Of a stretch of 5,379 bases of DNA, positions 4,135-5,379 are shown one piece after another. The stretch comes from a virus. Its lineage: Duplodnaviria > Heunggongvirae > Uroviricota > Caudoviricetes. The notes beneath the pieces are model-generated. The model saw only the letters and a list, made by a program, of their open reading frames with translations. It searched no databases and was not told the origin of the DNA. The position numbers were made by a program, and so were the translations under genes. Location: the IMG/VR virus record IMGVR_UViG_2537562119_000008. The stretch is one strand, 5' to 3'. Numbering within the stretch: position 1 is the stretch's first letter; each line of letters opens with the position of its first letter.

Positions 4135-4386
4135 TCACGCTGCTCGTTGAGTTTTGATTTTTGCTGTCTCCAGCTCAACACGCAGTTTCCCCACCGTTAG
4201 CGCAATATCCTCGTTCTCCTGGTCGCGGCGTTTGATGTATTGCTGGTTTCTTTCCCGTTCATCCAGCAGTGTCAGCACAATCGATGGTGTTACCAGCTCA
4301 TGGAAAAGGTCCGCGTCAAATCCCCAGTTGTCAGGCATTGCCTGCTCTGCCGCTTCACGCAGTGCCTGAGAGTGAATTACGCTCAC
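4135..4386 (-). CDS. ea22: Ea22-like protein, N-terminal part (83 aa) ending at an in-frame TGA; likely a disrupted gene
   Basis: GTG start overlapping the stop of the upstream TraR-like gene (GTGA), at the position where lambda ea22 starts. The N-terminus MSVIHSQALREAAEQAMPDNWGFDADLFHELVTP... resembles the conserved N-terminus of Ea22-family proteins as I remember them. The frame continues open for 53 more codons after the TGA (see findings). Confidence 0.5.
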   Translation of the reverse strand: MSVIHSQALREAAEQAMPDNWGFDADLFHELVTPSIVLTLLDERERNQQYIKRRDQENEDIALTVGKLRVELETAKIKTQRAA

Positions 4387-4604
4387 TTCGAACCTCTCTG
4401 TTTACTGATAAGCTCCAGATCTTCCTGGCAACTTGCACAAGTCCGACAACCCTGAACGGCCAGGCGTCTTAGCTCATCTATGGGATCGCCACACTCACAA
4501 CAATGAGTGGCAGATACAGCCTGGTGGTTCAGGCGGCGCATTTTTATTGCTGTGTTGCGCTGTAATTCTTCAATTTCTGATGCTGAATCAATGATGTCTG
4601 CCAT
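4383..4604 (-). CDS. TraR/DksA-family C4 zinc-finger protein (lambda Orf73-like), 73 aa
   Basis: The translation has the C-x2-C-x17-C-x2-C zinc finger (CECGDPIDELRRLAVQGCRTCASC). This aligns with the F-plasmid TraR motif CEACGNPIPEARRKIFPGVTLCVEC. Length is 73 aa, and the stop overlaps the ea22-like start. Confidence 0.8.
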   Translation of the reverse strand: MADIIDSASEIEELQRNTAIKMRRLNHQAVSATHCCECGDPIDELRRLAVQGCRTCASCQEDLELISKQRGSK

Positions 4605-4656
4605 CTTCCATTAATCCCTGAATTGTTGGTTAATACGCTTGGGGGTAAATGCGAGC

Positions 4657-4680
4657 AATAAAAAAGGAGCCTGTAGCTCC
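4657..4680 (-). terminator. Weak intrinsic terminator-like hairpin between the 93-aa ORF and the TraR-like gene
   Basis: Stem GGAGC (4666-4670) / GCTCC (4676-4680) with a 5-nt loop. On the minus strand it is followed by TTTTTTATT (reverse complement of 4657-4665). The stem is short, so termination would be weak or partial. Confidence 0.3.
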
Positions 4681-4702
4681 CTGATAATTTTGCTTTTCAT
4701 GT

Positions 4703-4984
4703 TCATCGTTCCTTAAAGACGCCGTTTAACATGCCGATTGCCAGGCTTAAATGAGTCGGTGTGAATCCCATCAGCGTTACCGTTTCGCGGTGCTTCTTCA
4801 GTACGCTACGGCAAATGTCATCGACGTTTTTATCCGGAAACTGCTGTCTGGCTTTTTTGATTTCAGAATTAGCCTGACGGGCAATGCTGCGAAGGGCGTT
4901 TTCTTGCTGAGGTGTCATTGAACAAGCCCCATGTCGGCAAGCATAAGCACACAGAATATGAAGCCCGCTGCCAGAAAAATGCAT
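4703..4984 (-). CDS. Hypothetical protein (93 aa; alternative start at 4918 gives 71 aa)
   Basis: ORF with ATG at 4984. An internal ATG at 4918 overlaps the stop of a possible 27-aa upstream ORF (ATGA). No recognisable domain. It occupies roughly the position of lambda orf61 but does not match its size. Confidence 0.5.
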   Translation of the reverse strand: MHFSGSGLHILCAYACRHGACSMTPQQENALRSIARQANSEIKKARQQFPDKNVDDICRSVLKKHRETVTLMGFTPTHLSLAIGMLNGVFKER

Positions 4985-4998
4985 TCAGTGGTTGTCAT
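4915..4998 (-). CDS. Possible small hydrophobic peptide (27 aa), translationally coupled between orf63 and the downstream ORF
   Basis: ATG at 4998-4996 overlaps the orf63 stop (ATGA). Translation MTTTECIFLAAGFIFCVLMLADMGLVQ has a single hydrophobic, transmembrane-like core. Its TGA at 4917-4915 overlaps the ATG at 4918 (ATGA). Not in the ORF track (under 60 aa). It is mutually exclusive with the first 22 codons of the 93-aa reading. Confidence 0.25.
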   Translation of the reverse strand: MTTTECIFLAAGFIFCVLMLADMGLVQ

Positions 4999-5186
4999 AC
5001 CTGGTCTCTCTCATCTGCTTCTGCTTTCGCCACCATCATTTCCAGCTTTTGTGAAAGGGATGCGGCTAACGTATGAAATTCTTCGTCTGTTTCTACTGGT
5101 ATTGGCACAAACCTGACTCCAATTTGAGCGAGGCTATGTGCCATCTCGATACACGTTCTTAACTCAACAGGAGATGCTTTGTGCAT
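4995..5186 (-). CDS. orf63: Small early-left protein, lambda orf63-like (63 aa)
   Basis: 63-aa ORF with ATG start. Its size (192 bp), its 28-nt overlap with the upstream orf60a-like ORF and its distance from the exo stop all reproduce the lambda orf60a/orf63 arrangement as I remember it. The protein sequence itself was not verified against lambda. Confidence 0.6.
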   Translation of the reverse strand: MHKASPVELRTCIEMAHSLAQIGVRFVPIPVETDEEFHTLAASLSQKLEMMVAKAEADERDQV

Positions 5187-5341
5187 ACAGCCCCCCGTTT
5201 ATTATTTATCTCCTCAGCCAGCCGCTGTGCTTTCAGGGGATTTCTGATAACAGAAAGGCCGGGAAATACCCAGCCTCGCTTTGTAACGGAGTAGACGAAA
5301 GTGATCGCACCTACCCGGATATTATCGTGAGGATGCTTCAT
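5159..5341 (-). CDS. orf60a: Small early-left protein, lambda orf60a-like (60 aa from the ATG overlapping the exo stop)
   Basis: The ATG at 5341-5339 overlaps the exo TGA (5340-5338) as ATGA, giving a 183-bp ORF as in lambda orf60a. The ORF track starts 2 codons earlier, at the ATG at 5347. Translation MKHPHDNIRVGAITFVYSVTKRGWVFPGLSVIRNPLKAQRLAEEINNKRGAVCTKHLLLS. Confidence 0.6.
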   Translation of the reverse strand: MKHPHDNIRVGAITFVYSVTKRGWVFPGLSVIRNPLKAQRLAEEINNKRGAVCTKHLLLS

Positions 5342-5379
5342 CGCCATTGCTCCCCAAATACAAAACCAATTTCAGCCAG
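5338..5379 (-). CDS. exo: Exonuclease (lambda Exo / Red-alpha), 3' end only; gene truncated by the window edge
   Basis: The minus-strand frame entering from the right edge reads LAEIGFVFGEQWR then stop. This matches the C-terminus of lambda exonuclease (...DEALAEIGFVFGEQWR) as I remember it, and the stop overlaps the orf60a start as in lambda. Confidence 0.8.
   Translation of the reverse strand: MAEIGFVFGEQWR

Follow-up and report, generated by a model that had tools for sequence, protein, structure and literature searches.

Coupled gene pairs whose stop and start codons overlap as ATGA are common in phage and bacterial operons. The locus described here shares with such pairs the overlap of four nucleotides (nt), the single strand and the single operon, and differs from them in that two successive overlaps surround a 27-codon gene, which exactly fills a 76 nt gap in RefSeq annotations. 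It lies in the IMG/VR virus record IMGVR_UViG_2537562119_000008 (Caudoviricetes), a stretch of 5,379 nt that was analysed over its whole length (the window). The window is one end of a lambdoid phage or prophage, from int-xis to exo, and its genes are encoded on the minus strand. In particular, the interval between orf63 and the gene for a 71 amino acid (aa) protein contains a hydrophobic open reading frame (ORF) of 27 codons, and this interval is probably a separate and conserved small gene, rather than a spacer or the region encoding the N-terminus of a 93-aa protein; its product would be a small hydrophobic phage protein.

The closest described counterparts at this locus are lambda orf61 and the 93-aa 'Orf61' of the Shiga-toxin phages Phi24B and 933W (L0070). 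The DNA is shared, and the 93-aa ORF encodes the 71-aa protein in its 3′ two-thirds; the differences are that the protein is read here as starting at an internal methionine, that the 66 to 96 nt upstream of this start are assigned to another gene in another frame, and that the lambda start codon is cut off in the window by a TGA. It has been published that lambda Orf61 is truncated relative to the Phi24B/933W form, and that residues 1–23 of the 93-aa form yield no consistent model (PMC8614690). In RefSeq E. coli chromosomes, the Prokaryotic Genome Annotation Pipeline (PGAP) already places the 71-aa start, annotating a 216-nt coding sequence (CDS) as 'hypothetical protein' or 'cell division protein ZapA' and leaving the 76 nt before it empty; the 93-aa ORF is annotated in RefSeq phage records, 933W and Escherichia phage Chlobot, and orf61 in lambda. 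The exact 27-aa sequence appears as a 'hypothetical protein' on 981 contigs, from some GenBank submissions, and as UniRef A0A0A2SGE8. The peptide is annotated in none of the RefSeq records compared, and no mention of it was found in the searchable lambda literature, either by keyword or by full-text sequence search. With the 71-aa start and the lambda truncation already on record, the finding is not categorically new.

A first-pass annotation of the window had set out two gene models downstream of orf63: a single 93-aa ORF, which starts at ATG 4984 and ends at 4703 together with the 71-aa version, and a chain in which orf63, the 27-aa ORF and the 71-aa gene are linked by two ATGA overlaps. Both models are encoded as it described, with all of the chain's coordinates correct (Table 1), and the evidence presented below favors the chain: a switch in the frame under selection, conserved junctions, a mosaic breakpoint at the peptide's ATG and the starts of distant homologues. 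Its judgment that two such overlaps in succession were unlikely by chance also stands; the probability that a 76-nt spacer is bridged with both overlaps, calculated as the product of a frame match, an A on each flank and a stop-free frame, is about 0.006. At both junctions, the stop and start codons overlap on one strand and within one transcription unit, with no minus-strand terminator-like site between the genes of the chain and one opposite-strand terminator-like site (4834–4851) inside the 71-aa gene. Across positions 4300–5379, no promoter-like site was found on either strand, and the only two minus-strand terminator-like hairpins (4664–4682 and 5255–5277) are outside the peptide zone.

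Table 1. Features of the window around the proposed small gene, in window coordinates, with the basis of each assignment.
Feature	Position	Strand	Basis or remark
orf63 (DUF1382), first gene of the chain	4995–5186	−	Pfam PF07131 (109.6 bits; cut-off 27); lambda and RefSeq records call it orf63/DUF1382
27-aa hydrophobic ORF MTTTECIFLAAGFIFCVLMLADMGLVQ, proposed small-protein gene	4915–4998	−	ORF list, selection, conservation
ATGA junction 1, orf63 stop and peptide start	4995–4998	−	
ATGA junction 2, peptide stop and 71-aa gene start	4915–4918	−	
71-aa gene, judged the true extent of the 'orf61-like' protein	4703–4918	−	216-nt CDS, homologue lengths, selection
22-codon N-terminal extension of the 93-aa ORF, judged non-coding	4919–4984	−	
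ATG at the lambda orf61 position (5012–5014), nine codons (MRETRYDNH) and in-frame TGA (4985–4987)	4985–5014	−	
A6 tract in the 71-aa gene (A7 in lambda)	4853–4858	−	Lambda alignment
31-aa ORF (29 aa from its second ATG), after the 71-aa gene	4611–4706	−	Third ATGA/GTGA overlap; coding status uncertain
orf73 (TraR/DksA-type zinc-finger protein), next gene of the operon	4383–4604	−	Pfam PF01258 and annotations
Ead/Ea22-like ORF	4135–4386	−	83 aa; GTG start overlaps the orf73 stop as GTGA
orf60a-like ORF (DUF1317)	5159–5347	−	Longest ORF 62 aa, from ATG 5347

A total of 467 related loci was gathered from IMG/VR, metagenomes, phage records and E. coli genomes, and selection was measured across 411 ungapped copies (129 haplotypes), with every distinct variant counted one time. 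Within the 76 nt that are private to the 27-aa ORF (4994–4919), the ratio of non-synonymous to synonymous polymorphism (pN/pS) in the 27-aa frame is 0.33 when all variants are included (16 synonymous and 17 non-synonymous, p = 0.0016), 0.17 for variants found in at least two haplotypes (11 synonymous and 6 non-synonymous, p = 4e-4) and 0.10 for variants found in at least three. For the same nucleotides and the same three sets of variants, the ratios are 0.75, 1.31 and 1.40 in the frame of the 93-aa ORF and orf61, and about 1, 2.11 and 1.40 in the third frame. Across the body of the 71-aa gene, the 71-aa frame has ratios of 0.34, 0.25 and 0.11; the two other frames have ratios of about 1 for all variants, 1.16 and 0.77 for those in at least two haplotypes, and 1.80 and 1.37 for those in at least three. 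These frame-by-frame ratios indicate that selection acts on one frame before the second ATGA and on another after it, and the constraint on the peptide ORF is about as strong as the constraint on the neighboring 71-aa gene. Further, of the 17 recurrent variants in the peptide zone, 12 are third-position changes in codons of the 27-aa frame, and the common polymorphisms at 4987 (T/G), 4927 (G/A) and 4918 (A/G) are all silent in that frame.

The conservation of the 27-aa ORF and its junctions in related phages, which the first-pass annotation had named as a check, is borne out in 148 of 159 unique sequences, where the 84-nt ORF is intact with ATGA at its 5′ end and ATGA or GTGA at its 3′ end. 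The four bases of the 5′ junction are invariant across all intact haplotypes; the 3′ junction is ATGA in 132 sequences and GTGA in 16, an A-to-G change that exchanges CAA for CAG and is synonymous in the peptide frame. An identical peptide is encoded by 117 of the 148. The sequences without an intact ORF include a mosaic type that has no peptide ORF (L005), two in which Gln27 has become a stop codon, one with a frameshift, and one whose homology begins partway into the ORF, apparently an IS3-disrupted prophage copy (L231); in another exception (n = 1), an indel lies in the downstream gene. These comparisons show the gene model, selection on the peptide's sequence and conserved junctions on both sides.

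The main rival explanation holds that the 27 codons only carry ribosomes from orf63 to the 71-aa gene, and that the peptide itself is functionless and degraded. Conservation of both 4-nt overlaps as ATGA or GTGA is what such a relay would produce, and the 71-aa start has a weak Shine-Dalgarno sequence (ΔG of −4.7) and a GTG codon in 16 haplotypes; moreover, where the ORF is missing (L005, L306 and L307, described below), the 71-aa gene has either its own Shine-Dalgarno sequence or a direct overlap with the upstream gene. A relay needs an open frame only, yet amino acid changes are depleted here as strongly as they are in the genes on either side, the great majority of intact sequences encode one and the same peptide, and the peptide's strong hydrophobicity would be left unexplained. 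We consider this explanation unlikely.

Natural mosaics show how the proposed gene behaves when its neighbors are exchanged. A Dam-type N6-adenine methyltransferase takes the place of orf63 in 32 of the 148 unique sequences and in 68 IMG/VR contigs, or about a fifth to a quarter of copies. For example, E. coli CV839-06 and LH13-b carry the order exo, DUF1317, N6-adenine methyltransferase, 27-aa ORF and 71-aa gene. In these mosaics, homology to the window resumes exactly at the peptide's ATG, and the methyltransferase stop overlaps this ATG again as ATGA (GCATGA), so that the overlap is conserved with a different upstream gene; a GGGAGG Shine-Dalgarno sequence is located 4 nt before the ATG, where the calculated ΔG is −10.3, compared to −5.6 in the orf63 context. 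In the L005 mosaic, a 71-aa gene with its own GAGG starts 7 nt after a different upstream gene of 250 aa, without a peptide ORF; its 71-aa-type product (P0025) belongs to a cluster of 344 members. Together, the methyltransferase and L005 mosaics imply that the peptide ORF acts as a module bounded at its ATG, and that the internal methionine can serve as the start of a free-standing 71-aa gene.

The same N-terminus is found in distant relatives of the 71-aa protein. An exhaustive HMMER search retrieved about 20 homologues of 69 to 75 aa with identities of 32 to 48%, and their alignments extend from residues 1–71 to residues 1–71; because these distant homologues align from residue 1, the family's N-terminus is the 71-aa start. 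The protein belongs to phrog_303 (E = 4.7e-36). A search of viral and metagenome contigs did not yield the locus of P0102, a homologue with 65% identity. On the side of the peptide, no homologous ORF follows the distant DUF1382 genes of a P1-like phage, Sf11, phi191 and Sasha. In Sf11 (L226, 960–1031), a 23-aa hydrophobic ORF does link the DUF1382 homologue to the next gene, with its start and stop both overlapping; it is probably fortuitous, because it coincides with a conserved hairpin (GTGCGC...GCGCAC) in which Sasha (L228) has stop codons. As all copies of the peptide gene are at least 92% identical, no homologue was found outside the E. coli lambdoid phages, and distant relatives are without the ORF, the gene is judged young and lineage-specific.

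These same features are what would be expected if a chance ORF in a non-coding spacer were conserved through close kinship, or because of an RNA or DNA signal, and distant relatives of the operon that are without the ORF would agree with it. However, a spacer would not produce a codon-position periodicity and an excess of synonymous changes in one frame only, a double-overlap geometry with so low a chance probability, or a mosaic breakpoint exactly at the ATG; further, the mRNA structure of the peptide region is not unusual (z = +1.5), no Rfam family matches it, and there is no promoter-like site. Such a chance origin is very improbable.

A single 93-aa protein from ATG 4984, with the 27-aa ORF as an untranslated by-product, is the model usually adopted in phage annotation (Chlobot, 933W L0070 and the RefSeq phages). 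It is the longest ORF, PHROG 303 spans all 93 of its residues, and its ATG is intact in nearly all haplotypes. However, the 22-codon extension is unselected in its own frame (pN/pS from 0.75 to 1.40) where the overlapping peptide frame is selected, the start has no usable Shine-Dalgarno sequence (ΔG of −3.8), and AlphaFold models the extension with low confidence, as the predicted local distance difference test (pLDDT) is 41–56 for residues 1–20 and 74–92 for the core. The extension is also missing from the distant homologues and from the L005 mosaic, PGAP selects the 71-aa start in E. coli chromosomes, and one haplotype has lost the ATG altogether (ATG to AAG). Overall, we regard the 93-aa model as highly unlikely. 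A programmed −1 frameshift that would fuse the peptide to the 71-aa protein was also considered and rejected, as inspection of the peptide frame found no X XXY YYZ heptamer.

The description of the peptide as hydrophobic and transmembrane-like, first made from the window's letters, agrees with the calculated values: its grand average of hydropathy (GRAVY) is 1.62, its best 19-residue Kyte-Doolittle window scores 2.33, and it has the highest hydrophobicity among the 58 ORFs of 20 to 40 aa in the window. Its size (at most 50 aa) and its hydrophobic stretch, of a length that could span a membrane, are those of a small membrane protein. It contains no basic residue, and Glu5 and Asp22 are acidic; with neither Lys nor Arg, it would escape standard tryptic proteomics. 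The peptide resembles KdpF (29 aa), AcrZ, MgtS and CydX in its size, its one predicted hydrophobic helix and its location in an operon, and KdpF is likewise without basic residues; the peptide differs from them in having no sequence relationship and in being encoded by a phage-borne and evolutionarily young gene. With the type I toxin peptides (Ibs, ShoB, Ldr and Hok), it shares a short length and a very hydrophobic composition. In contrast to these toxins, it is located inside a polycistronic operon and has no basic C-terminus; moreover, the locus has no sign of a type I antitoxin, with no antisense promoter-like site on either strand across 4300–5379 and no Rfam match.

Several observations weigh against the reading as a separate small gene. 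The selection test on the peptide is based on 33 variants, and the ATG of the competing 93-aa ORF is itself nearly always intact. Behind orf63, the peptide start has a Shine-Dalgarno sequence of no more than moderate strength, and the absence of basic residues is unusual in membrane anchors. In two loci (L306 and L307), a distant 71-aa homologue is placed right after an MT-A70-type methyltransferase, with an ATGA or 14-nt overlap and no ORF between. No homologue of the peptide was found outside of E. coli lambdoid phages; a tblastn search of 50,697 phage records returned only copies with at least 92% identity. Finally, the extra ORFs that a review gives for the lambda region are one of 7 aa and one of 31 aa only, and the 27-aa ORF is not among them (PMC8614690).

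If the chain is translated as its geometry suggests, expression would take place in the early leftward (pL) operon by termination and re-initiation. Ribosomes completing orf63, or the Dam-type methyltransferase, would stop at the TGA of the first ATGA and start again at the ATG that overlaps it, to translate the 27-codon ORF; at the second junction (ATGA or GTGA), they would again stop and restart, now on the 71-aa gene, which has a weak ribosome binding site of its own. The peptide, with 27 residues and an uncharged-to-acidic character, would form a single hydrophobic helix and partition into the inner membrane. There it may bind a larger membrane protein, acting as a modulator of a host or phage membrane component, although this last step is speculative. 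More tentatively still, and with more doubt than confidence, the peptide could be a recently born, lineage-specific membrane microprotein of the E. coli lambdoid and Shiga-toxin phages that acts on a target in the host's inner membrane, and that, in place of any 'Orf61' protein, is behind at least a part of the published phenotypes of orf61 deletions (altered lysogenisation, a changed timing of prophage induction and the reduced adsorption of Phi24B).

The biology of lambda orf61 bears directly on the proposed gene. Across the 601 nt compared, the window matches Escherichia phage Chlobot with 100% identity and lambda (J02459, 30609–31210) with 97%, the latter at the homologous position and with the same flanking orf63 and orf73. 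As the first-pass annotation had noted, an ATG 20 nt inside orf63, at the start position of lambda orf61 (annotated as 61 aa), opens a frame that reaches a TGA after nine codons, directly before ATG 4984 and in the same frame; the continuous ORF from this ATG is therefore interrupted in the window. Its suggestion that the segment has diverged from lambda is not supported, given the 97% identity and the finding that the TGA allele is the majority form. It had also allowed that the lambda alignment might reveal an unchanged orf61 under a different annotation; the DNA is indeed nearly identical, but orf61 is not unchanged, since the TGA closes the frame and the window has A6 where lambda has A7.

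Relative to lambda, whose GGA codon keeps the frame open, the TGA results from a single G-to-T change, and the same change converts ACG to ACT (both Thr) in the 27-aa frame. Among the related sequences, this position of the orf61 frame is occupied by TGA, GGA, AGA or TAA, all of which are synonymous or conservative in the peptide frame; the variation is explained by the orf61-position frame being non-coding. Consistent with this, there is no selection in the orf61 frame upstream of 4918, and selection is present only downstream. Read-through or bypass of the TGA, yielding a lambda-orf61-like protein from ATG 5014, is suggested by the position of the TGA, which separates two ATG-initiated stretches of one frame, and by the continuous frame of lambda. 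However, the codon varies freely, the frame is unselected, there is no downstream structure, and lambda's continuous frame ends early through a frameshift of its own. Because the codon is polymorphic, we reject read-through, and give recoding next to no credence.

Instead, it is lambda that is the odd one out, owing to its A7 frameshift. The A6 tract is found in the window and in almost all relatives, and A7 is limited to the lambda lineage in the sample; as a result of A7, the frame shifts and stops early, and the 71-aa gene is cut to 29 aa. A few non-lambda haplotypes carry independent single-base indels at or beside 4853–4858, which could be real frameshift mutants of the 71-aa gene or sequencing errors. 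The lambda orf61 protein (MRETRYDNHGMHFSG...KKSQTAVSG), when aligned, is therefore the frame of the 93-aa ORF, extended upstream and truncated downstream. The 27-aa product is identical in lambda, where the peptide's ATG is at 31008, and the 29-aa remnant of the 71-aa gene comes next, with its ATG at about 30928. On this alignment, lambda 'orf61' (30839–31024) appears to be an annotation artefact, in which the wrong frame is read across the peptide gene and then continues into an A7-truncated 71-aa gene. Dydecka et al. replaced orf61 wholly with a scar and could not obtain Orf61 as a soluble protein, describing it as intractable (PMC6213356). As orf61 spans the peptide gene, the published orf61 deletions removed the peptide gene too; both the insolubility of Orf61 and the scar replacement fit a mis-framed construct and a two-gene deletion.

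Two sets of records in the collection are close to lambda itself. The species-representative genomes with orf63 (L088–L103) all come from unrelated taxa, among them Nanosynbacter, Shewanella, Bradyrhizobium, Paenibacillus, Kitasatospora and Segatella; their orf63 matches are at 94%, the level of lambda, except for the Nanosynbacter metagenome-assembled genome (L088, 98%), most of their DNA copies carry the A7 indel, and several are on contigs of about 48.4 to 48.5 kb. They look like lambda control DNA contaminating assemblies, and contributed no diversity to the comparison. Similarly, MW057783.1 ('Campylobacter phage CJLB-4'), with a lambda-sized length of 48,361 nt, has 97.2% identity across the 601 nt, equal to that of lambda, and is probably lambda DNA under a Campylobacter phage name.

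The labels given to the 71-aa protein received no support. The 'ZapA' label (PF05164) scores 15.7 bits in Pfam, below the cut-off of 23.8, with no NCBIfam match and no Foldseek match against the PDB with E < 2; a 'homeodomain-like' label is unsupported by Pfam, NCBIfam, Foldseek and a PDB sequence search. The PDB sequence search returned weak ankyrin-repeat matches around GFTPTHLSLAIGMLNGV in the C-terminal half (best E = 3e-4), and the exhaustive HMMER search with the 71-aa query also returned multi-stretch matches to long proteins.

Further genes of the window were identified by Pfam matches to an integrase, an excisionase, the Ea22-like ORF, a TraR/DksA zinc finger (orf73), DUF1382 (orf63) and DUF1317 (orf60a). 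Two more overlaps connect genes in the window, as the 71-aa gene overlaps the 31-aa ORF as ATGA, and orf73 overlaps the Ea22-like ORF as GTGA. The first ATG of the 31-aa ORF is replaced by GTG in about half of the haplotypes, and its selection is borderline (pN/pS of 0.26 to 0.52, p = 0.04 to 0.09). A 31-aa ORF from ribosome profiling, 'orf2313', has been reported in the same region of lambda (PMC8614690), and is presumably the 31-aa ORF found here. Within the 31-aa ORF, an intrinsic-terminator-like hairpin (GGGAGC-TACAG-GCTCC followed by TTTTTTATT; 4664–4682, minus strand) may be a terminator of lambda's leftward operon. The Ea22-like ORF is followed by about 300 nt without a long minus-strand ORF, and it is far shorter than its annotated relatives (948 nt in AU5Stx1 and 549 nt in lambda). 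The start of orf60a varies between annotations: lambda and Chlobot have 60 aa from ATG 5341, two codons downstream, and AU5Stx1 has the 62-aa form in RefSeq; a GGGGAG Shine-Dalgarno sequence is common to both ATGs.

Lambda and the Shiga-toxin phages have some of the most studied genomes in biology, and work on their exo-xis region has asked how it affects the lysis-lysogeny decision and toxin release. The finding corrects a long-standing lambda annotation. If it is true, orf61, one of the exo-xis region's five 'conserved genes', has been drawn wrongly; structural, two-hybrid and overexpression studies would have used a partly wrong polypeptide, and the published orf61 deletions would have taken out two genes. 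Further, 4248 copies of the region are spread over 3142 of 5426 complete E. coli genomes, and each of these 3142 genomes would then have a membrane microprotein encoded at this locus.

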